A DNA stretch of 64,000 bases from Oligoflexia bacterium (GCA_014378465.1 JACMNQ010000065.1:5186-69185), one strand, 5' to 3'. Numbered from the stretch's first letter, positions 10,821 through 31,466 are shown. The notes: generated by a model not told the origin, from the letters alone. Program-made: numbers and translations.

Positions 10821-12899
10821 TCAGGCAGGTTCCGGCTTTTTACCCGCTTTGTTCTTGGTGCGTTTCTTCCGGGATCCCTTGCGGCGGCCATGGCCGGACT
10901 TCTTGCTCTTCTCCGGTTTGACGAAAACGAATCTGGGATGCGCTGAATCAATCAGCGGATGTTCGACGGAGTTGAGCCCGCCAAATTTCTGATTGGCGTC
11001 ATTCTGGGCCACGATGGACTGAACGACCACTTCACGCATGATGGGGCCTGCCGTGAGTTTCTTTCGTGCCGCAGGAATTCTGGACATGACCCAGCCCATG
11101 TCGTCACCACCCGTCACCAGGAAGTCGAGCGTGGCGACTTTGTAGAGTTTCGAATCGATGATCGAACTTCCGTCCGTGAACTTCGCGTCCAGAAGTCGGT
11201 TGATTTCCCATGGAGAGATCTGGTGGTCTCCATTGAGGTCGGTCGAGGGAGCGGCGACTGAAGGATCCAGCAGGCGCAGCTGCACTCCGGAGACGGAGAA
11301 CCAGCCTCGCACACCGCTCTCGGCCACCCGGAGCAGCTGCTTGAGTTCCTTGCCATTCACCGTGAGCAGTGAAATCGCATTGTCAAAAGGCAGGGCCTTG
11401 AAGACGTCTCCATAGGTGATCGCGCCTTCTTCAAGCGAAGTGCGGATGCCGCCCGCATTCATGATCGCCACATCAGCCTGAACGCTTTCCCGAATGGCAT
11501 CGGCGACGAGGTCTCCAAAAGGCGATTCCTGAGTGCGGGTGTGCTCAATCCTGCGCACGGCATTTCCGAGAACCTTGTGCTTGGCTTCGGCCGTCCTGTC
11601 AAAAATGGGCTGCAGAAGAGCGGTGATTTCGGAATCCGCCTTGACTTTCTTTCCATGAAAAACAGGAGTGATCAGTTCACCCCGGCCATTTTTGGGAGCC
11701 GGGCGGTCGCCGTTGCAGTCCTTCTGATGAGCGAAAACCTTCGGACAGATCGGGACAGGACCTTCAATGCGAGTCTTGTCGGTGACGAGCTTCTTCTGGC
11801 TCCAGTCGTAAGTCAGGTACAGGAGATTGAAGTACTGATTTCGAGTGCCTCCTTGAATGACCGGAACGCCGGAGATCCAGTGGTGGACCAGAGTATGTGA
11901 GTGACCGGAGACCACTGCGTCCACCGTTCCGGCGGGAAGGGAGTGGAGGAGTTCCACGATTTCTTCACGTGATTCATCCGTCTGGGTGTCGACGCAGTCA
12001 GAGGCCGGATCAGTCGGAGCTCTCAGGGCTTTGGACTTCTTGAACTCCGAGTGAGAAGCGTCGCAGTGCAGGCCGGCGTGGGCCAGAACGAGCACGATCT
12101 GCGCACCCTGCTTGCGAAGTTGATCAGCTTGAATCAGCGTTGCATCCTTCAGGTTCATGAACTCCAGGCTCTTGACGTATTCCTGGCGAGTCGTCACTGG
12201 AGTCTCCAGGGTCGTGAGCCCGATCACTCCGATCGTCAGCCCGCCGGCCTTGATCATGTAGTGAGGAACCGTTCCTGGGATGCCCGGCAGTGCCCGAGTG
12301 CCTTTGTCGATGATGTTCGAGGAAACGTAAGGGTATTTGGCTTCCGAGATTCTCTTTTTGAGGGCACCCAGTGAATCCGATTCAGTCTGACTGTTTTCCG
12401 CACCGAAATCGAATTCGTGATTGCCGATCGTGGCTGCATTCAGACCGATGGCGTTGAAGTACTGCACCATGGCGGCGCCTTTTTCGATGTTGCTTTCAAG
12501 TGAACCCTGAAACTCATCGCCCGCATCGAGAAGCAAAAGTCTCGTGCCGAAGTCGTCTTTCAAAATCCTGATCTGCGACGCGAGGTAGGCTGCGCCGCCG
12601 CGGTCATAGGGAACGACAGGCACTCCTTCGGCTTCTTTCGTCTTGGCGGACTCAGGAGCCAGCGCACCATGCACGTCATTCATTCCGAGGATCACGACGG
12701 TTTCCTGATGGGGGTCCTTGGAGAGTTCCACTTTGGCGCTGTGATCTGATCCGGTCTCATCGGTGGTCTCGTGTGCGCCGTGGCTGCAGCCGCCGAGGGT
12801 TGCACCGAGCGCGGCGGCTGCAGTGAGTGCTGAAAAGGCCTTTGAAAGGTCATGAGAAAAGCGATGAAAGGAGAGTGCCGTACCGGAAAGTTTTCGCAT
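10821..12899 (-). CDS. bifunctional metallophosphatase / 5'-nucleotidase lipoprotein with polybasic C-terminal tail
   Basis: Calcineurin-like motifs GMNDVHG, DAGDEFQGS, GNHEFD and SGHSH. Lipobox LGGC after the signal peptide; start taken at the internal MRKLSG. C-terminus KSKKSGHGRRKGSRKKRTKNKAGKKPEPA. Confidence 0.8.
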   Translation of the reverse strand: MRKLSGTALSFHRFSHDLSKAFSALTAAAALGATLGGCSHGAHETTDETGSDHSAKVELSKDPHQETVVILGMNDVHGALAPESAKTKEAEGVPVVPYDRGGAAYLASQIRILKDDFGTRLLLLDAGDEFQGSLESNIEKGAAMVQYFNAIGLNAATIGNHEFDFGAENSQTESDSLGALKKRISEAKYPYVSSNIIDKGTRALPGIPGTVPHYMIKAGGLTIGVIGLTTLETPVTTRQEYVKSLEFMNLKDATLIQADQLRKQGAQIVLVLAHAGLHCDASHSEFKKSKALRAPTDPASDCVDTQTDESREEIVELLHSLPAGTVDAVVSGHSHTLVHHWISGVPVIQGGTRNQYFNLLYLTYDWSQKKLVTDKTRIEGPVPICPKVFAHQKDCNGDRPAPKNGRGELITPVFHGKKVKADSEITALLQPIFDRTAEAKHKVLGNAVRRIEHTRTQESPFGDLVADAIRESVQADVAIMNAGGIRTSLEEGAITYGDVFKALPFDNAISLLTVNGKELKQLLRVAESGVRGWFSVSGVQLRLLDPSVAAPSTDLNGDHQISPWEINRLLDAKFTDGSSIIDSKLYKVATLDFLVTGGDDMGWVMSRIPAARKKLTAGPIMREVVVQSIVAQNDANQKFGGLNSVEHPLIDSAHPRFVFVKPEKSKKSGHGRRKGSRKKRTKNKAGKKPEPA

Positions 12900-22659: not shown

Positions 22660-24456
22660 TCAGGAAAAGATCTTGCTGATCAGACTTTTCAGCATCCCGG
22701 GCTTCTTGGACTTCGAAGCGTTCGCGGTCTGAGTGTGTTTCTTGGCAGCATGGGCTGATGTCCCTGCTGGCTTTGCAGCGGTAGCCGACTGTGATGTCCC
22801 GTCGGCAGTGCTCTTTGAAGATCCGTTTGACCCGCCGTTTGAAGGGGCGGGAGCACCGCCATCCACGGGAGCAGTTTTGTAGAAAGTGCGAGGATTGGGC
22901 TGCGCAGGAGGCTGATGATCCGCTTTCTTCGCTGAAGTTTTCTTTTCAGGGCGTCCTTCACCTTTGGATTCGTTCTTCGCTGGTCGATCCAGGCGGCTCG
23001 AGCCATCGCCGCGAGGGGAGGTCGGATCCGCTGAAATTGGGGCAGAGGTCTGTGCAGCGCCCGCAGCACGAGGGCGAATCCCCGTCGATGGAGTGCCCGG
23101 TGCTGGAGAAGCGCCGGCAGCGCGAGGCTGGGCCCCGTCTTCAAATTTTCTGGGGGCCCCGCCGCGACCACCGCGAGAGGAGCCATTTCTGGATGAGCCT
23201 TCACCGGAGCGGGAACCGCCGCGATGACTGCGTCCACTGGATTCGCCGTCTCCCGAACTGGCAGAAGGGGAGGCTTCTGCGTATTCCGCTGGAATTTCCT
23301 TACCCAGGATCTTGTGAATCTCGCCCAGGATCTTGCGGTCCTGAGGAGTGACGAAGCTCGTGGCCTTGCCCGAGAGATCCGCGCGTCCCGTACGACCGAT
23401 GCGGTGGACGTAGTCTTCAGGATCCATGGGCAGATCGTAATTCACGACGTGAGCGATGCCATCGACATGAATGCCGCGGCCTGCAACGTCAGTCGCGATC
23501 ATGATCCGGTATTTGCCTTCCTTGAATTCAGCCAATGCCTGCTCTCGGTGCGATTGCATGCGGTCGGAGTGGATGTAAGTGGCGTCATAGATGCCAGCGC
23601 TGTGGAGCGATCTCCAGACGCGGGTCGCTTTGTCCTTGGAGCGCGTGAACACGATGATACTGCCCGGCTCTTCACGAAGAAGGCGCCTGAGTTCACGGGT
23701 CTTGCTCTCTTCAGGCATGTGAAGAAGCCGCTGAGTCACGGATGTGGATGCGGAATTGAGTTTACCGATCGCTACCGTTTTAGGGTTCTTTAAAATCTTC
23801 TTGGCCAGGTTGGTGACCGACGTCGCCATGGTGGCGGAGAACAGAAGAGTCTGCCTCTTGGCCGGCACGTCCTGCATGATGCGGGCAAGCTGGTCGGCAA
23901 AGCCCATGTCGAGCATGCGATCCGCTTCGTCCAGAACCACGACTTCAATGTAGTCGAGCCAGATGTTGCCGCGGTCCAGATGATCGCAGAGGCGGCCCGG
24001 AGTGGCGATGATCACCTGGGGGTAAGTGCCGAGCGCGGCGACATCGATTTTCATGTCAATTCCGCCGATGAGCACGACTGAGCGCACTTTTCGCGGAGCA
24101 CCGAACATTTCAAGCGTCGCTTGAGTCTGCTGAGCCAATTCACGAGTGGGGGCGAGGATCAACCCGAAGGTTCCTTCACGCCCCGCAAAACGGTCGACCA
24201 TCGGCAATACGAAGGCTGCCGTCTTGCCGGTCCCGGTCTGAGCGGAAGCGATGAGGTCGGTTCCTTCCAGAGCGATGGGAATGCCCTCGGCCTGAACGCC
24301 ACTGGGGGTTTTGAAGCCTGCTTTTTCAATCAGCAGAAGTGCTTCAGGGGAGAGTCCCAACGAGTCCCAGCGGGGATTCGGAGCAAGTTCAGCCGTTACG
24401 GCAGCGGGAGAGGACGATGGGGTCACTAGAGAGTCAATTGGCGGCTTTTCTTCCAT
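22660..24456 (-). CDS. DEAD-box ATP-dependent RNA helicase with RGG/low-complexity basic C-terminal tail
   Basis: Q-motif, AQTGTGKT, PTRELA, DEAD-box (VVLDEADRML), SAT and HRIGRTGR motifs. About 200 aa of G/R/S/P/A-rich tail. Confidence 0.85.
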   Translation of the reverse strand: MEEKPPIDSLVTPSSSPAAVTAELAPNPRWDSLGLSPEALLLIEKAGFKTPSGVQAEGIPIALEGTDLIASAQTGTGKTAAFVLPMVDRFAGREGTFGLILAPTRELAQQTQATLEMFGAPRKVRSVVLIGGIDMKIDVAALGTYPQVIIATPGRLCDHLDRGNIWLDYIEVVVLDEADRMLDMGFADQLARIMQDVPAKRQTLLFSATMATSVTNLAKKILKNPKTVAIGKLNSASTSVTQRLLHMPEESKTRELRRLLREEPGSIIVFTRSKDKATRVWRSLHSAGIYDATYIHSDRMQSHREQALAEFKEGKYRIMIATDVAGRGIHVDGIAHVVNYDLPMDPEDYVHRIGRTGRADLSGKATSFVTPQDRKILGEIHKILGKEIPAEYAEASPSASSGDGESSGRSHRGGSRSGEGSSRNGSSRGGRGGAPRKFEDGAQPRAAGASPAPGTPSTGIRPRAAGAAQTSAPISADPTSPRGDGSSRLDRPAKNESKGEGRPEKKTSAKKADHQPPAQPNPRTFYKTAPVDGGAPAPSNGGSNGSSKSTADGTSQSATAAKPAGTSAHAAKKHTQTANASKSKKPGMLKSLISKIFS

Positions 24457-24585: not shown

Positions 24586-25155
24586 TCAGGCGACTGCTTG
24601 GGTTGGATCCATCGTCATGAGAAAGCTGGCCATATCTTCGGCATGCTCTTCTTCCTGGCCCAGGATATCTTCCATCAGCCGGCGGGAAGTCGGGTCATTG
24701 TCGCCGAGATAACGGATAATCTCACTATAAGAATCGATTGCGATTCTTTCGGCGATCAGATCCTCCTGGATCATTTCAACAAGTGAGCCGCCCTCATGGT
24801 ATTGAGAGTGACTGCGGTCCAGAAGTCCTTCAGGATTCATGTTCGGGTTTCCGCCGAGCTGGCGAATTCGGACGGCCAGGCGATCCGCGTGAACCTGCTC
24901 TTCGTTTGCATGCTGGAGAAATTCATCGGCAACGGCTTTGGCCTGCATTCCCTCGGCGGTGAAGTAGTGGTGCTTGTAGCGAAGCACGCAGACCAGTTCA
25001 GTTGCCAGGGCCTCATTGAGGATCTTGATGACCTGTTCACGGTCGCCGCGGTAGCCAGGAGTCACCGCGCCATTCTTGATGTGTTCCCGAGCTCGGCGTT
25101 GAATTTCTCTGATGTTGCTCACAAACGGTTGGTTGGCCATGATTGAATCCTTCAT
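24586..25155 (-). CDS. bfr: bacterioferritin-like ferritin-fold protein
   Basis: Four-helix ferritin-like pattern with a conserved E...ExxH...E...ExxH arrangement (ELVCVLRYKHHY, EEQVHADR, QEEEHAED). The N-terminal extension makes the start uncertain. Confidence 0.6.
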   Translation of the reverse strand: MKDSIMANQPFVSNIREIQRRAREHIKNGAVTPGYRGDREQVIKILNEALATELVCVLRYKHHYFTAEGMQAKAVADEFLQHANEEQVHADRLAVRIRQLGGNPNMNPEGLLDRSHSQYHEGGSLVEMIQEDLIAERIAIDSYSEIIRYLGDNDPTSRRLMEDILGQEEEHAEDMASFLMTMDPTQAVA

Positions 25156-25357: not shown

Positions 25358-27295
25358 TTGACACAAGGTGCTGATCTTGATTCAATTCTGTCCATGGTAA
25401 AAAAAGCGGACAGCAAAGCTGCAGCAAAAAAAGCAGCACCCAAAGCCTCATCCACTCCTTCAGCAAAGGGAGGCGCGGCTTCAGAAACGAAAGGCGCCAA
25501 GGCTTCTCCAAAATCTGCTGGTTCTGCTGCCAAAAAGACTGCAGATGCCGACACGGATGCTCCGGTACGGGCTTCCAAAGCTTCGAAGTCGATCACGACA
25601 TCGAGCACTGCCGAGTACTTCTCGAAGAATCTTCAGCAAGTTGGATTCTCTTCACAGGTCAAAGCGGTTCTCACGACGCTCAAGGAAGCCGTCGATAATG
25701 CCCTGGACGCCTGCGAAGAACATGGTTTTTTGCCTGAAGTTGAAATCTGGGTCGAAAAGATCGGCGCAGGCTCCCTCAAGAATTCAGATCAGGTTCGCAT
25801 CCGAGTTCTCGACAACGGTCCGGGCATTGATCCGGATGACGTTCCCAAAGTTTTCGGCGAATACCTCGCTTCTTCAAAGTTCGGTCGCGGGCGCTGTTCA
25901 CGTGGACAGCAGGGGATCGGGATTTCCGCGGCCACCACCTGGGCGCAGTTGACCAATGCCACTGGGGCTCGAGTCATCACCAAGACTCCGAAGATGCGCA
26001 AGGCGATGTCCTGCACCGTCGAAGTGGACATCAAGCACAACAAAGGCGTGTTGAAAGACCGCGAGATGATTGAATGGGACCGCGAAAACGGAACATCGGT
26101 CGAGTTCGTGATCGATGGACGCATTCAGCTGAACGGCGAAGCCGGCCTCATCAACTACCTCACGGGCACCACGCTCGTGAATCCGCATCTCACTCTCCAT
26201 TCCAATCTTCCGGATCTCGGTCGTCAGACCGTGGAACGAGTGACTCAGGAAATCCCCGCGATCCCTGAAGCCGTCGAACCTCATCCTCACACGATGAAGC
26301 TGGGTGAATTCATTGCGCACTCCCATCTCTTCGGACGTGTGAAAGTCGGAGCCTGGCTCAAGAAGGGCTTCTCCCGCGTGAACGAAGGCACTCTCAAGGA
26401 CCTCGTCAAAGCGGGCATCAAGGCTTCACTCCTTGAAAAGTCGGTCGATGGAATGAATGAAGTCGAGTTCAAAGACCTCTTCACGAAGATCCAGAACATT
26501 CAGCTCATGGCGCCTTCCACGAAGTCAGTTCTCTCAATCGGTGAAGAAGCCCTCGCCAAGAGCATCAAGCGTCTGGGCGCAGTCGACTTCTTCGCAGTCG
26601 TGACCCGCAAGCCGACCATCTGCGATTTCAAACCCGTCGAAGTCGAAGTGGCGGTGGCCCGACTCGAAGACCGCGCGATGGAAGCGGACGCTCCCGTGCA
26701 GGTTCTTCGTTTCGCCAACCGCGTGCCGCTTCAGTTCGACAAGGCAGCCTGCGCGATCGTGCAGGCCCTGACTTCAGTGAACTGGAGAGCGTACGGAATC
26801 TCGCAGCCGAAGGAAGCTCTGCCTCAGGGTCCGTACATCATCGCGGTCAGCGTGGTGTCGCCTTTCATCAAATTCAAGAACGCCTCCAAGGAAACGGTCG
26901 ATGCTTCGGACGAACTGGTCGAAGAGATTCGCCGTGCGCTGATCCAGGCGGGACAACGCCTTTCCAAGCACATCCGCAAGGAAGACAAAGCGAATGATCT
27001 GGAAGAAAAACTTCGCCACATCGAGCAGTTCTGTCCAATTCTGGTCGATGGACTCTGCAGAATCACCGAAGCCAGCGAGGCTCGCAAGAAGCGCGCGGAA
27101 GATGGACTGGTCAAACTTCTCGGACGGGACACTCGCGTCGCGGAACAGGAACTTGCCCATGCTCATGTCTCTCTCGAAAAAATGACCGCCGCTGAAAATG
27201 CGGACCCTTCGCTGGCCGGCACCAAAAAAGGTTCAGGCAAGAAAAACGCAGAGAAAAAGAAGTCCTCCAAAAAAGAAGCTGTAGCAGCGGAGTAG
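25358..27295 (+). CDS. top6B: type IIB DNA topoisomerase VI subunit B (GHKL/Bergerat ATPase) with Lys/Ala-rich N- and C-terminal tails
   Basis: Bergerat-fold motifs EAVDNALDA (N-box), VLDNGPGI (G1) and GRCSRGQQGIGISAA (G2), then a transducer region. The track start at 25358 is TTG; the ATG at 25394 (MVKKADSK...) is more likely. N-tail AAKKAAPKASSTPSAKGG..., C-tail KKGSGKKNAEKKKSSKKE. Confidence 0.8.
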   Translation: MTQGADLDSILSMVKKADSKAAAKKAAPKASSTPSAKGGAASETKGAKASPKSAGSAAKKTADADTDAPVRASKASKSITTSSTAEYFSKNLQQVGFSSQVKAVLTTLKEAVDNALDACEEHGFLPEVEIWVEKIGAGSLKNSDQVRIRVLDNGPGIDPDDVPKVFGEYLASSKFGRGRCSRGQQGIGISAATTWAQLTNATGARVITKTPKMRKAMSCTVEVDIKHNKGVLKDREMIEWDRENGTSVEFVIDGRIQLNGEAGLINYLTGTTLVNPHLTLHSNLPDLGRQTVERVTQEIPAIPEAVEPHPHTMKLGEFIAHSHLFGRVKVGAWLKKGFSRVNEGTLKDLVKAGIKASLLEKSVDGMNEVEFKDLFTKIQNIQLMAPSTKSVLSIGEEALAKSIKRLGAVDFFAVVTRKPTICDFKPVEVEVAVARLEDRAMEADAPVQVLRFANRVPLQFDKAACAIVQALTSVNWRAYGISQPKEALPQGPYIIAVSVVSPFIKFKNASKETVDASDELVEEIRRALIQAGQRLSKHIRKEDKANDLEEKLRHIEQFCPILVDGLCRITEASEARKKRAEDGLVKLLGRDTRVAEQELAHAHVSLEKMTAAENADPSLAGTKKGSGKKNAEKKKSSKKEAVAAE

Positions 27296-27305
27296 GAAGC
27301 ATCAC

Positions 27306-28454
27306 ATGGCAATCAGACCCGATCAGGAAATTCCCAAACTCAGCAAGGAACTCTGCAACAAGCTCCTGTTGGATCTTGAAAAAGCGAAACGTCCGGTCCT
27401 CTATGCGACCAAATGCTCGCTCGACAACGCGCTTTACAATCACAAGGTGGGGTACCTCACTCCCGGACCGAAGAAAGTGGCCACTGAACTGAACGTCAGT
27501 TCGGTGAAGAAGATGTCGCGCGCGATCTTCATGCTTGAGATCATCCTGCGCAACATTGACAGCGGTGGTGTGAACACGAAGCGCGAGTTGTACTACATGA
27601 GCAAGGGTGAAATTAAGCACAATTCGATCCTGAAGCCTCTCGACTTCGGCGATCAGGATGAATCTGATGGAACCATCGATTTCATCTGCGAGCTCCTTGA
27701 ATGTTACCGCGAGGACCTGAACTGTTACGCAAATGACCGAGGCGGTCAGACTTACTCCCAGCAGCTCGTCGTGACGGAAACCCTCCCGGATGGTGACACT
27801 GCCGTCATCGATCTCGGAAAGCTCGGAACGACTCCGTTTCAGCCCAAAAATCGTCCCCAGAATCTCAAGCTCAAAGCGAAGGAAAAGATCGATTTTTGCC
27901 TGATCGTCGAGTCCGAAGGTACAGCCAACACTCTGGTCGCCAATGGATTCACGAAACGCCATCCCTCGATCCTGATGGGTGCGCAGGGCGTTCCATCCAA
28001 TGCGGTTCGCGGTTGGTGCAAGCTGATTCAGGATCAGCTCAATATCCCGCTCTATTTCTTCGGCGATCTGGATGCGTACACGATGCAGAACATCTTTCGC
28101 ACGCTCAAGGCCGGCTCTGCCGCGTCCCTGATCCGAAATTCCGATTACTCCGCGCCGGATGTCAGATTTCTTGGGGTTTTGCCTGAAGACATCAAGAAGT
28201 ACGACTTGCTCGATTATCCCGTGAAGGAAAACGACGCGCAGGAAGTCCGCGCACTCAAGAAGGCGCAGGATGCTCTCAAAAACGATCCCTTCTTTCAAGA
28301 CAAGCGCAACAAAGGCCTCACCGAGATCCTCAACTGGCTCCTCAAGAACAAAAGACGTTGTGAGCAGCAGGCTTTCTTCACCGTCAATCCTCGTGATCCC
28401 CAGATGCCTGAGAAGATCATCATGGAGAAGATCAAAGCCGGGAAATTCGTCTGA
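27306..28454 (+). CDS. top6A: type IIB DNA topoisomerase VI subunit A (Spo11/Top6A; 5Y-CAP + Toprim)
   Basis: Catalytic-tyrosine motif RELYYMS, Toprim acidic motifs LIVESEG and FFGDLDAY. Begins 8 nt after top6B, the same B-then-A order as the archaeal operon. Confidence 0.8.
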   Translation: MAIRPDQEIPKLSKELCNKLLLDLEKAKRPVLYATKCSLDNALYNHKVGYLTPGPKKVATELNVSSVKKMSRAIFMLEIILRNIDSGGVNTKRELYYMSKGEIKHNSILKPLDFGDQDESDGTIDFICELLECYREDLNCYANDRGGQTYSQQLVVTETLPDGDTAVIDLGKLGTTPFQPKNRPQNLKLKAKEKIDFCLIVESEGTANTLVANGFTKRHPSILMGAQGVPSNAVRGWCKLIQDQLNIPLYFFGDLDAYTMQNIFRTLKAGSAASLIRNSDYSAPDVRFLGVLPEDIKKYDLLDYPVKENDAQEVRALKKAQDALKNDPFFQDKRNKGLTEILNWLLKNKRRCEQQAFFTVNPRDPQMPEKIIMEKIKAGKFV

Positions 28455-28499: not shown

Positions 28500-28532
28500 A
28501 AGCCGTCACTCCGCTGGGGTGGCGGCTTTTTC
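28500..28532 (+). terminator. rho-independent terminator after top6A
   Basis: 12-bp GC-rich stem (AGCCGTCACTCC-gct-GGGGTGGCGGCT, two G-U pairs) followed by TTTTTC, 45 nt after the top6A stop. Confidence 0.55.
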
Positions 28533-29248: not shown

Positions 29249-29881
29249 TCAGTGGAGGATATTTTGCAAGTCTATGCGTTGACTGGATTTGAAAGGAGAC
29301 TGGGACGATTGGGCGGATGACTTGATTGAGGACTCCCCACTCAGCAGTTCAAAAACTTTCGCACGGGTGCCCGCTCGGATGATTCCGAAGTCGATCAGTT
29401 CTTCGCCGATGCAGGGAATGCCGAGCTTCTCCTTGACCCGAATGGCGCCAATGTTCTGGACGGGTGTCTTGAAGAGAATGCGCTTCAGATCGAAACGTTC
29501 GAAAAAAACCTGGCAAGCTTTCGGATAGCTCCGTAGTCCCAGCCCCCGATTTCGGAAAGTGGGATTCCACACGTGCGCATGAAAAATGCCGTGGTCGCCC
29601 TCAATCAGTGGAAAGAGGGTGTGCACACCCACGGTCCGTCCGTCGCAAGTGATTGCGAGAGCGTGGAGTTTGGAAGTCGAGAGCAGACAATTGTCGGTGA
29701 TATTCTGAAGAGTGCCGCGGGCCATTTCGGCTTCAGTCGGTAACTTCGACAGGTCTACGCCCATTCTTTCAACGAAACCGGGAGGAGAGCGGTACCAGTA
29801 GTCCAGCATCAGGGGGACATCCTGCTCCGAGAGATCACGTACTGAGATGTGCTCAGTCGAGAGTGGGCGGGAAACAATCAT
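29249..29881 (-). CDS. GNAT family N-acetyltransferase
   Basis: GNAT core (GVHTLFPLIEGD...RNRGLG). Start chosen at the internal MIVSRPL, which has a GGAGG RBS 7 nt upstream. Confidence 0.65.
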   Translation of the reverse strand: MIVSRPLSTEHISVRDLSEQDVPLMLDYWYRSPPGFVERMGVDLSKLPTEAEMARGTLQNITDNCLLSTSKLHALAITCDGRTVGVHTLFPLIEGDHGIFHAHVWNPTFRNRGLGLRSYPKACQVFFERFDLKRILFKTPVQNIGAIRVKEKLGIPCIGEELIDFGIIRAGTRAKVFELLSGESSIKSSAQSSQSPFKSSQRIDLQNILH

Positions 29882-29906
29882 CCTCGAGCCTCCAAAAAGG
29901 TCCCGC

Positions 29907-30296
29907 TCAAGACTTCTGAATCCCATCCCGAAACGCGGACTCAAACTTGATCCAGCTTCGTATATCCTGATCAGGCAAACCATTTTCCCGCAACACTTCC
30001 TCGAGAATTCGAAGCCGCCGATCAAAATGGCCAGCGAGAATGGGGGCAAGTTCGAGGTGCGCCTGGGCAGGAGCTTTACCGGAGTATGAGAAGCTGCCGC
30101 CCATGGCTCGCATGAGGAACTGTTTCTGCTTTTCGGCGATAACGTCGACGTCCTTCCCATCGAAGAAAAAACCGATGAGGATGTCATCACGCATGCGCGC
30201 GTAAAAAGTGTGAAGGATTTTCGAGAGACCCGTTTCTCCGCCGATTTTTTCGTAAATGGCCTTGAGCTCGGGTTTGCTGACGGAGATCTCTTTCAT
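29907..30296 (-). CDS. group I truncated hemoglobin (2/2 Hb)
   Basis: 129 aa. trHb pattern: Phe/Tyr B-helix pair (FYARMRDD) and proximal His region (...AHLELAPILAGHF). Confidence 0.6.
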   Translation of the reverse strand: MKEISVSKPELKAIYEKIGGETGLSKILHTFYARMRDDILIGFFFDGKDVDVIAEKQKQFLMRAMGGSFSYSGKAPAQAHLELAPILAGHFDRRLRILEEVLRENGLPDQDIRSWIKFESAFRDGIQKS

Positions 30297-30311
30297 TTCA
30301 TTCTTTCTGAG

Positions 30312-31202
30312 TCAGAACGCCTGGGCCTTGGCCTGAATCCAGGAGTAGAAGAATACTGCGTCGGGATCGTCCTTCAGACGTTCCAGTTCCTGTTCCATCT
30401 CGTCGACGATTTCCTGAGTGACTTTTCCCGCTTCGATCAGGCCGGCCGCGCCGCTGAGGAGGAGGTTGATCCAGTACTCAATGAACTGCGCGCGCTGCTT
30501 GGGCGCGCGGTTGTCGTAGTGGTGAATGAGATTTTTGGTCGTGATGTTCTGAAATCCCGCAGCCATCAGGTAATTGGCGAGCTTCGCACCCACGAAAGGA
30601 TCTCCTTTGAGATTCCATTGATGGTCGTTGAAAGCAAACCAGTATTGAAGTGTGGCCGGGCTGTACGGATGGACGTAGAAGGAAGAGTTGAGAACTTCGT
30701 TGCAGTAAATCGTACCGCTCGGCTTCATCACGCGGCGGATTTCGCGGAGAATTTCGATCGGCTCCTGAACGTGTTCAAGAAACCAGCAGACGAAGGCTCC
30801 GTCGAAGGCATCTTCTTCGAAGGGGAGGTGGAGCGCGTCGGCGACGTCCAGCTTCAGACGATTGGAACTGAGGTGAGAGGCGAGGTGATTGCGGGCACGC
30901 TTGACTTGAGCCTCAGAGGCATCAAGTCCGTGGATGAAAAGCTGGGGAAAGCGCTCGAGGAGAATTTCCGTCTGAGCTCCCACCCCGCAGCCGACTTCCA
31001 GGACCTGATGCTGTTGAGAGAAATCAATATGTTCGTAAACGCTTTTTTCGAGGAAACGAGCCTGCTTGTAGAGCCGGTCCTGTTCATCAGACGAATAACC
31101 GTGTAGGTAGCCCGGGGCCACTCCCGTTGCGGGTTTCGTTTTTGACGGACGGGGAGGACGTGCAGCTGGAGCCGCGTGAGCGGGCTTTTTCTTCATCGCC
31201 AT
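30312..31202 (-). CDS. class I SAM-dependent methyltransferase with Lys/Pro-rich N-terminal tail
   Basis: Motif I VLEVGCGVG and post-I acidic LD. N-terminus MAMKKKPAHAAPAARPPRPSKTKP. Begins 45 nt downstream of the histone-fold gene on the same strand. Confidence 0.75.
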   Translation of the reverse strand: MAMKKKPAHAAPAARPPRPSKTKPATGVAPGYLHGYSSDEQDRLYKQARFLEKSVYEHIDFSQQHQVLEVGCGVGAQTEILLERFPQLFIHGLDASEAQVKRARNHLASHLSSNRLKLDVADALHLPFEEDAFDGAFVCWFLEHVQEPIEILREIRRVMKPSGTIYCNEVLNSSFYVHPYSPATLQYWFAFNDHQWNLKGDPFVGAKLANYLMAAGFQNITTKNLIHHYDNRAPKQRAQFIEYWINLLLSGAAGLIEAGKVTQEIVDEMEQELERLKDDPDAVFFYSWIQAKAQAF

Positions 31203-31247: not shown

Positions 31248-31466
31248 TTACATGAAATCGCGGTCCATGACGGTCTTGCGACCTTCACGTTTCGCGTTTT
31301 CAATGGCCTGGTCACACAAAGCACGCACTTTGTCGGACAGAGCGCTGATCACGGCGCCAGAAGTGTTCATTCCAGACTTGGCACGGATGTAGTTTTTCAG
31401 CTTGGAAGCGACTACGAGAACTTCTGCGCCATCAGTACCGGTGTTTTCTTGGTTTTCGTTTTCCAT
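31248..31466 (-). CDS. bacterial histone-fold protein (Bdellovibrio HBb / DUF1931-like)
   Basis: 72 aa. LVVASKLKNYIRAKSGMNTSGAVISALSDKVRALCDQAIENAKREGRKTVMDRDF resembles the histone fold (alpha1-L1-alpha2-L2-short alpha3) including the (A)GRKT(I/V)xxxD signature of archaeal HMf-type and Bdellovibrio histones. AGGA RBS. Confidence 0.6.
   Translation of the reverse strand: MENENQENTGTDGAEVLVVASKLKNYIRAKSGMNTSGAVISALSDKVRALCDQAIENAKREGRKTVMDRDFM

Follow-up and report, generated by a model that had tools for sequence, protein, structure and literature searches.

Is the topoisomerase VI (topo VI) of a histone-bearing bacterium an enzyme adapted to histone-coated DNA, or an ordinary bacterial enzyme that happens to have basic tails and a histone gene nearby? 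The question is raised by a stretch of 64,000 nucleotides (nt) from an Oligoflexia bacterium (GCA_014378465.1, JACMNQ010000065.1:5186-69185), hereafter called the window, in which genes for the two topo VI subunits, Top6B and Top6A, stand side by side, Top6B has lysine-rich tails at both ends and a histone gene lies a short distance away. An initial annotation of this DNA had proposed that the tails may tether the enzyme to histone-coated or AT-rich DNA. We favor a different answer, to which we assign a probability of about 0.6: the locus would encode an ordinary bacterial type IIB decatenase, and the Top6B tails would serve as non-specific electrostatic DNA tethers.

Identification of the topo VI operon

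As judged from sequence, the locus is a standard topo VI B-A operon with intact catalytic motifs (Table 1). Family models, structure alignments, motifs and the 10-nt gap between the two genes all bore out the assignment made in the initial annotation. The Top6B open reading frame (ORF) scored 501.3 bits with the NCBIfam equivalog NF003218 (cutoff 274), covered the full model length of Pfam PF09239 (Topo-VIb_trans, E-value 3.5e-45) and had a GHKL/Bergerat ATP-binding fold by its matches to PF02518 (HATPase_c) and PF13589; with TIGR01052 it remained just under the cutoff (370.7 versus 380.7). Its residues 62-557 aligned continuously to residues 8-493 of the 621 residues of the Methanosarcina mazei chain (2q2e_B; HMMER, E-value 1e-81), a span in which the H2TH domain is expected by published descriptions (the AlphaFold2 model is too weak for the fold), and it also aligned to Saccharolobus shibatae Top6B (E-value 2e-56). 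Compared with these two archaeal enzymes, the ATPase motifs are kept, namely the E-x-x-x-N box (KEAVDNALDA), DNGPGI and the G2 box (RGQQGIGIS(AA)). In the transducer, the switch lysine is kept in FKNASKET, and WRAY replaces WKxY, a conservative K-to-R substitution.

Top6A matched PF04406 (TP6A_N, E-value 3e-14) and PF21180 (TOP6A-Spo11_Toprim, E-value 7e-37), both above threshold, scored slightly below the cutoff of NF003335 (390.6 bits, cutoff 424) and aligned to the Top6A proteins of Methanocaldococcus jannaschii (1d3y, E-value 6e-33) and S. shibatae. In addition to the motif with the catalytic tyrosine (Table 1), the Toprim Glu and DxD are conserved: VESEG and GDLDAY align to IETSG and TDGDPY. 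The sequence AGGAAG overlaps the Top6B stop codon, and wherever a Bdellovibrionota locus was covered far enough, Top6A lay directly 3' of Top6B. The end of the operon is probably marked by a terminator-like hairpin, to which we give little weight since the promoter and terminator sites of the consensus scan were no more numerous than in shuffled sequence; the same scan found no plus-strand promoter upstream of Top6B.

Other identities were rejected. A MutL model reached 19.7 bits against a cutoff of 180, and MutL and histidine-kinase models as a group scored about 15-20 bits on Top6B, via the shared GHKL fold. Topo VIII and GyrB were likewise discarded; unlike what is expected of Topo VIII, Top6B exceeds the topo VI-B equivalog cutoff. 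Placement of the proteins by profiles in MutL, GyrB or Topo VIII, which had been named at the outset as the result that would count against a topo VI, did not occur.

The mechanically called Top6B ORF spans 25358-27295 (plus strand) and begins with a TTG at 25358. The true start is most likely the ATG at 25394 (Met13 of the listed ORF), with the TTG 12 codons too far upstream, because the public record P0001 ("DNA topoisomerase VI subunit B"), a protein of 633 amino acids (aa) that is 100% identical to the window Top6B, begins with MVKKADSK and orthologs begin with MAKKADSK or MAKKADDK.

Table 1. Features of the topo VI locus and of the nearby histone gene, in window positions
Feature	Position	Strand	Details
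Top6B (topo VI subunit B) coding sequence	25394..27295	+	633 aa; NF003218, PF09239, PF02518, P0001, 2q2e_B
N-terminal Lys/Ala/Ser-rich tail of Top6B	25394..25591	+	66 aa, 14 K, net charge +10; precedes N-strap ITTSSTAEYF (from 25592)
Top6B loop R243-G251 (RIQLNGEAG), aligned to M. mazei KGRR186-189 T-segment sensing loop	26120..26146	+	HMMER alignment to 2q2e_B
C-terminal tail of Top6B, after the conserved terminal helix, ending ...GTKKGSGKKNAEKKKSSKKEAVAAE	27179..27292	+	38 aa, 10 K, net charge +5
Top6A (Spo11-like subunit A) coding sequence	27306..28454	+	382 aa; PF04406, PF21180, NF003335, 1d3y
RELYY motif in Top6A winged-helix (5Y-CAP) domain, catalytic tyrosine Y97 by alignment	27582..27596	+	aligned to REAYY (M. 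jannaschii) and RDLYY (S. shibatae)
Terminator-like GC hairpin followed by T-run, probable operon end	28511..28525	+	57 nt past the Top6A stop; consensus scan
HBb/Bd0055-type bacterial histone, 72 aa, not part of the topo VI unit	31248..31466	-	PDB 8cmp, 8fvx, E-value 6e-13

Lysine-rich tails of the window Top6B

The Lys/Ala-rich extensions described at both ends of Top6B are real, and the tail sequences quoted in the initial annotation were found in the translated product. No in-frame ATG, GTG or TTG occurs between 25394 and the N-strap at 25592, so the N-terminal tail must be translated, and the C-terminal tail is bounded by the Top6B stop codon. That the tails are an annotation or assembly artifact (a wrong start, a frameshift or a chimeric contig) has a practically negligible chance of being correct. 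The misplaced mechanical start could be taken as a hint of it, but the identical 633-aa product is present both in an independent Logan assembly and in NCBI, and a start-codon artifact was rejected on the lack of an alternative in-frame start before the N-strap. Comparable tails were found in many independent assemblies; the initial annotation had treated their absence from all relatives as a possible sign of such an artifact, and this was not what we observed.

Lysine content averaged 5.4% over 50 ORFs of the window (a crude gene set), and a comparably lysine-rich end was present in three of the 50, that is, in Top6B, a DEAD-box helicase and a 5'-nucleotidase. The helicase, recognized by reading its sequence (598 aa, 22660-24456, minus strand), has a low-complexity C-terminal region of ~220 aa rich in Ser, Gly, Ala and Pro, with a lysine-rich end. 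The 5'-nucleotidase/metallophosphoesterase (692 aa, 10821-12899, minus strand) carries a Lys/Arg-rich tail, EKSKKSGHGRRKGSRKKRTKNKAGKKPEPA, at its end.

The initial annotation had also called the Top6B tails histone-H1-like. The C-terminal tail of linker histone H1 is about 100 aa long and consists of about 40% Lys plus Ala and Pro, with S/TPKK-type motifs. The N-terminal tail of Top6B has 66 aa with 21% Lys, its C-terminal tail has 38 aa with a maximum of 36% Lys per 25-aa window, the tails contain one SPK tripeptide and no family model matches them. The resemblance to H1 is thus one of composition only.

Relatives of the window enzyme

Matches of Top6B in protein databases ran to thousands, of which the best 120 were considered; these were 74-84% identical to the window protein and, where named, of Bdellovibrionota/Oligoflexia type. 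For a species-level sample, one genome per species was scanned with an alignment of close homologs (A1), which yielded 80 loci. Loci L001-L039 belonged to Bdellovibrionota (58-81% Top6B identity) and included complete genomes of Bdellovibrio bacteriovorus and Bdellovibrio sp., and loci L040-L080 (33-38% identity) represented archaea (DPANN and Methanosarcinales) and, among other groups, Planctomycetota, Acidobacteriota and Myxococcota. In a neighbor-joining tree, the Bdellovibrionota sequences formed a single monophyletic clade on a long branch, within which the window sequence was sister to L001 in a subclade with L001-L005. By this tree, the window topo VI belongs to a clade that is vertically widespread in Bdellovibrionota. 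Contigs with a Bdellovibrionota-type topo VI were also encountered under the labels Methylotenera sp., Cryobacterium sp., Lysobacteraceae, Nitrospira sp. and Polynucleobacter sp. (P0001, P0107, L005, L007 and L039); these five are probably mis-binned or mislabelled contigs of metagenome-assembled genomes.

Occurrence of tails in Top6B proteins

Tails were counted in 36 complete species-level Bdellovibrionota Top6B proteins and in 77 close homologs (at least 74% identical). A C-terminal tail of at least 40 aa was present in 28 of the 36 species-level proteins, and in 27 of these 28 the last 25 residues were net-positive and lysine-rich, often after an acidic linker. One example is Top6B of B. 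bacteriovorus YOA24 (L016), the C-terminal tail of which ends in ...TKKTTTKKTVTTKKTTGKKA. Among the close homologs, all long C-terminal tails ended with positive charge (20/20) and most short C-termini were acidic (44/59). Basic N-terminal extensions were rarer (6/36 species-level loci, 20/77 close homologs), and the subclade of the window (with L001-L005) had mostly short C-termini. As far as these sequences indicate, the tails are conserved in kind and not in sequence, being gained and lost quickly and strongly biased to positive charge.

The initial annotation had asked whether the tails are conserved in orthologs and had stated that canonical Top6B lacks them. The answer to the former is divided: a lysine-rich, positive C-terminal tail recurs, but its sequence is not conserved and N-terminal tails are rare. 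The latter statement holds for archaeal enzymes, which had short N-termini and acidic C-termini in our sample, but not for Bdellovibrionota, in which a lysine-rich C-terminus is the rule.

Near the C-terminal end of some Bdellovibrionota Top6B proteins we observed a motif, G-K-[KR]-P-K-I-[IV]-[LV], for example GKKPKIILSGGK and GKRPKIILNGKR. It is carried by P0051, P0064, P0070, P0098, P0099 and P0107 (columns ~730-745 of alignment A1). This motif, the sole alignable element within the C-terminal tails, may be a short linear motif.

Outside Bdellovibrionota, bacterial Top6B proteins often had an N-terminal extension of 40-150 aa rich in Lys, Arg and Ala before a conserved TAESMA N-strap. Such extensions were present in Planctomycetota, Acidobacteriota and Myxococcota (L044, L045, L052-L054, L059, L062, L063, L070, L074, L079 and L080, with approximate start codons). 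In most cases the G+C content at third codon positions (GC3) of the extension matched that of the core, which shows these regions to be coding. By the same GC3 comparison, the N-terminal extensions of L042 and L048 were discounted as over-extended ORFs.

Replacement of the KGRR loop

In M. mazei Top6B, the KGRR loop senses DNA crossings, and its mutation abolishes strand passage (PMC5922973). At the corresponding position the window protein reads RIQLNGEAG (Table 1). Of the 40 Bdellovibrionota sequences, nearly all had the pattern R[IV]QLNG[ED][AG]G, the others had close variants of it and none had a basic cluster; at least two basic residues were present at this position in 31 of 41 other sequences. 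Several archaeal sequences likewise had no basic loop, so KGRR is a feature of the characterized enzymes and not a strict family criterion. The clade-wide replacement suggests that the M. mazei mechanism may not transfer unchanged to bacterial enzymes. The M. mazei-type C-terminal domain is also missing from the window Top6B. A limited literature search found no description of lysine-rich or C-terminal topo VI tails or of a clade-wide replacement of this loop.

The histone gene and its neighborhood

A histone-fold gene within about 3 kb of the topo VI genes had been reported in the initial annotation, and this is correct: it lies 2.8 kb past the Top6A end, on the opposite strand. About half of the residues of its product are identical to those of the B. 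bacteriovorus HBb/Bd0055 structures (8cmp and 8fvx), and it carries GRKTVMDRD and SKLKNYIRAK. HBb-type histones are recognized by a single histone fold of ~60 aa, an RKTxxxD motif and lysines on helix alpha-1 (PMC11390915). Generic Pfam and NCBIfam histone models matched the window histone below threshold. The histones of the window subclade bear a short acidic or polar N-terminal extension, unlike Bd0055: MENENQENTGTDGAE in the window (31428-31466, minus strand), and MENTTTEETKE and MDNQDQGAGGE in the histone ORFs of L001 and L002.

Four minus-strand genes separate Top6A from the histone gene; they code for a 221-aa protein without a family match, a GNAT acetyltransferase, a bacterial-like globin and a class I methyltransferase. 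The methyltransferase, which is S-adenosylmethionine-dependent by its class, the globin and the GNAT protein (29249-31202, minus strand) follow directly downstream of the histone gene on the same strand. A histone-modifying cluster is unlikely because the methyltransferase and the GNAT gene are not near the histone gene in L001 or L002.

We searched six-frame translations of the 80 loci for histones with phmmer, then with jackhmmer seeded with the window histone and Bd0055. A histone gene within 10 kb of topo VI was detected in L001 and L002 only. Of the 39 Bdellovibrionota loci, 28 had at least 6 kb of downstream sequence, two of them with a nearby histone, and 29 had at least 6 kb of upstream sequence, none of them with one. 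Within the subclade of the window, no histone was found near topo VI in L003 (the sister of L002), L004 or L005. Locus L004 keeps the globin and FKBP-like neighbors and has no histone; the 93-nt interval between these neighbors was inspected by hand and held no hidden small ORF. In L002, the histone is nearby and Top6B is essentially tail-less. At the level of whole genomes, B. bacteriovorus HD100 has the histones Bd0055 and Bd3044 together with topo VI (Bd2864), a co-presence that a review already notes (PMC11318664), and Bd0055 homologs were detected in 67% of Bdellovibrionota genomes (PMC10627809).

The proximity of the histone gene most likely reflects how the genes are arranged locally within a narrow subclade, with the histone in what appears to be an independent transcription unit, and not as functional coupling. 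The shared chromatin neighborhood proposed for the two genes is not upheld, given synteny in 2/28 loci and the four unrelated genes and terminator-like hairpin in between.

On the other side of the operon, a gene of the ferritin-like/rubrerythrin family (24586-25155, minus strand) is transcribed divergently to Top6B, with 238 nt of intergenic DNA between the two. The Logan contig L081 also has this gene, but it stands beside topo VI in none of L001-L039. The wider context in the window consists of chromosomal housekeeping genes, including those for aconitase, a DinB-type polymerase, HrpB and RmuC.

Possible function of the tails

Under the reading we favor, the products of the operon would form an A2B2 enzyme that its motifs predict to be catalytically competent. 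By published inference, such an enzyme would serve as an ATP-dependent decatenase and relaxase in bacteria with gyrase and without topo IV. Topo VI-bearing bacteria outside Pseudomonadota and Terrabacteria have no topo IV, and M. mazei topo VI complements an E. coli parE(ts) mutant according to unpublished data of the same authors (PMC11302465). Because there are such topo VI-bearing bacteria without topo IV, topo VI plausibly supplies decatenation, and we infer this role for the window enzyme as well. The lysine-rich stretches of Top6B would be intrinsically disordered, fast-evolving appendages that may concentrate DNA locally around the ATP gate and thereby help in DNA capture or retention; that they are DNA tethers is suggested by their charge bias and by analogy with the C-terminal tails of actinobacterial topoisomerase I.

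Several points weigh against this reading. The topo IV argument comes from the literature, and the source genome is seen here through a 64-kb window. The case for binding of DNA by the tails is made from charge and analogy. AlphaFold2 (26-sequence alignment) modeled the tails as coil, with a predicted local distance difference test (pLDDT) of about 33 for residues 1-69 and below 50 for residues 604-633, which is weak evidence of disorder because the whole Top6B model was of low confidence (mean pLDDT 58, predicted template modeling score 0.39). Neither tail was present in 40 of the 77 close homologs; the core function thus does not require the tails, which could be neutral. Tail sequences were unalignable between relatives and ranged from 0 to about 150 aa in length, and the counts of positive tails ignore shared ancestry. 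Codon usage also differs: 17 of 24 Lys codons in the tails are AAA, and 28 of 40 in the core (25592-27178) are AAG; GCT and GCA make up 18 of 28 Ala codons in the tails and 12 of 49 in the core. Thus, the core prefers AAG, GCC and GCG and the tails prefer the AT-ending AAA, GCT and GCA, a difference that fits a recent expansion of slippage type.

The last of these points bring in the view that the tails are low-complexity stretches that grew neutrally when replication slipped in A-rich codons, and that the enzyme works in the same way as a tail-less ortholog. The many homologs with neither tail and the few with both (3/77), the unalignable tails of widely differing length and the tail codons rich in A and T at the third position all agree with it. 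However, slippage of this kind does not account well for the direction of the charge, positive in 27/28 and 20/20 long C-terminal tails with short C-termini mostly acidic, nor for the basic extensions, coding by GC3, that Top6B of Planctomycetota, Acidobacteriota and Myxococcota has at its N-terminus, nor for the rarity of lysine-rich ends among window proteins (3/50). We regard neutrality as a credible minority view. A more far-reaching proposal, which is doubtful in our opinion, is that bacterial topo VI repeatedly gained selected, basic, disordered tails for DNA capture, which in Bdellovibrionota partly replaced the lost KGRR sensor. It would have the tails acquired at the C-terminus in Bdellovibrionota, at the N-terminus in Planctomycetota, Acidobacteriota and Myxococcota, and at both ends in the lineage of the window. 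If this were true, the tails would alter the way in which the enzyme locates or retains DNA and would act in cis in a manner similar to the accessory proteins or extra domains of plant and archaeal enzymes.

Two narrower explanations assign the tails a specific partner or task. It is quite improbable that the tails make up for the absence of both a KGRR loop and an M. mazei-type C-terminal domain, with a modified sensing of the T-segment or of crossings as the result. This explanation can draw on the fact that M. mazei KGRR mutants lose strand passage (PMC5922973). It can also draw on QLNG(E/D) or a variant thereof in 40/40 Bdellovibrionota with a basic loop kept in 31/41 others, on the alignment of the window Top6B to residues 8-493 of the 621-aa M. 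mazei chain only and on the lysine-rich C-terminal tails typical of the clade. On the other hand, 40/77 close homologs have the altered loop without any basic tail, other bacterial phyla pair a KGRR-like loop with long basic N-terminal tails, and several archaeal sequences also do without the basic loop. Moreover, in known structures (2Q2E, 2ZBK) the Top6B C-terminus lies where the transducer stalk approaches Top6A, at a large distance from the cavity of the ATP gate. We consider it very improbable that the tails tether topo VI specifically to HBb-coated or AT-rich DNA and that the histone and topo VI genes constitute a functional chromatin neighborhood, as the initial annotation had it. The histone gene is indeed less than 3 kb away in the window and nearby in L001 and L002, its closest relatives among the species-level loci, a basic tail could be drawn to the acidic N-terminal extension of the subclade HBb, Bdellovibrionota have retained both gene families (PMC10627809), and some metagenomes have gene clusters in which another histone family accompanies topo VI-like genes (PMC11390915). 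Yet synteny is absent from 26/28 downstream-covered and 29/29 upstream-covered loci, L003, L004 and L005 among them. The histone gene is also encoded on the opposite strand and is set apart from the operon by a terminator-like site and four unrelated genes, L002 combines a histone with essentially no tails, lysine-rich C-terminal tails are the norm without an adjacent histone, and only 67% of Bdellovibrionota genomes had detected Bd0055 homologs (PMC10627809).

Significance

The locus itself adds little, as topo VI in Bdellovibrio-type bacteria, their histones, the co-presence of both in the same genome and the exact window protein are all already on record. The role of bacterial topo VI is still called unclear (PMC11302465), and two observations made across the phylum may be useful in this regard: its Top6B typically ends in a lysine-rich, consistently positive and probably disordered tail, and, clade-wide, another sequence takes the place of the KGRR loop, an essential element of the single topo VI that has been dissected mechanistically. 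For both reasons, the M. mazei mechanism should be applied to bacterial enzymes with care. The lack of conserved histone synteny argues against an unsupported story of an archaeal-type chromatin island.

Comparison with known systems

The archaeal topo VI enzymes of known structure (M. mazei 2Q2E; S. shibatae 2ZBK and 1MU5; M. jannaschii 1D3Y) align continuously with the window enzyme over the GHKL and transducer regions and the span between them in which the H2TH domain is expected, and have the 5Y-CAP and Toprim domains and all catalytic motifs in common with it. In contrast to these structures, the window Top6B has no M. mazei-type C-terminal domain, contains QLNGE in place of KGRR and WRAY in place of WKxY, and has gained basic tails.

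The plant proteins RHL1 and BIN4 illustrate that a non-archaeal topo VI can depend on additional components; unlike the tails, they are separate polypeptides that act in trans, and they are not homologous to the tails. Both are DNA-binding proteins. They are found with eukaryotic topo VI in every case, whereas bacteria and archaea have neither of them (PMC11302465). Topo VIII and mini-A, which are plasmid- or virus-borne, belong to the same type IIB family (PMC11302465, PMC9665070), but the window genes lie in a chromosomal context and give no sign of a plasmid or of a fused architecture. A parallel to the tails themselves is provided by actinobacterial topoisomerase I (TopA of Streptomyces and Mycobacterium), which likewise has a Lys/Ala-rich low-complexity terminal tail. 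In PMC7587558, which cites Strzalka 2017 and Ahmed 2013, these lysine-rich C-terminal tails are described as binding DNA and conferring processivity. However, TopA belongs to an unrelated class, type IA, with single-strand passage.

The topo VI of B. bacteriovorus HD100 (Bd2864/Bd2865) and its orthologs share with the window enzyme the clade, the B-A operon, the altered loop and the lysine-rich kind of C-terminus. Compared with B. bacteriovorus, the window Top6B has basic tails at both ends, and the histone gene is close to topo VI, which is not so in B. bacteriovorus.

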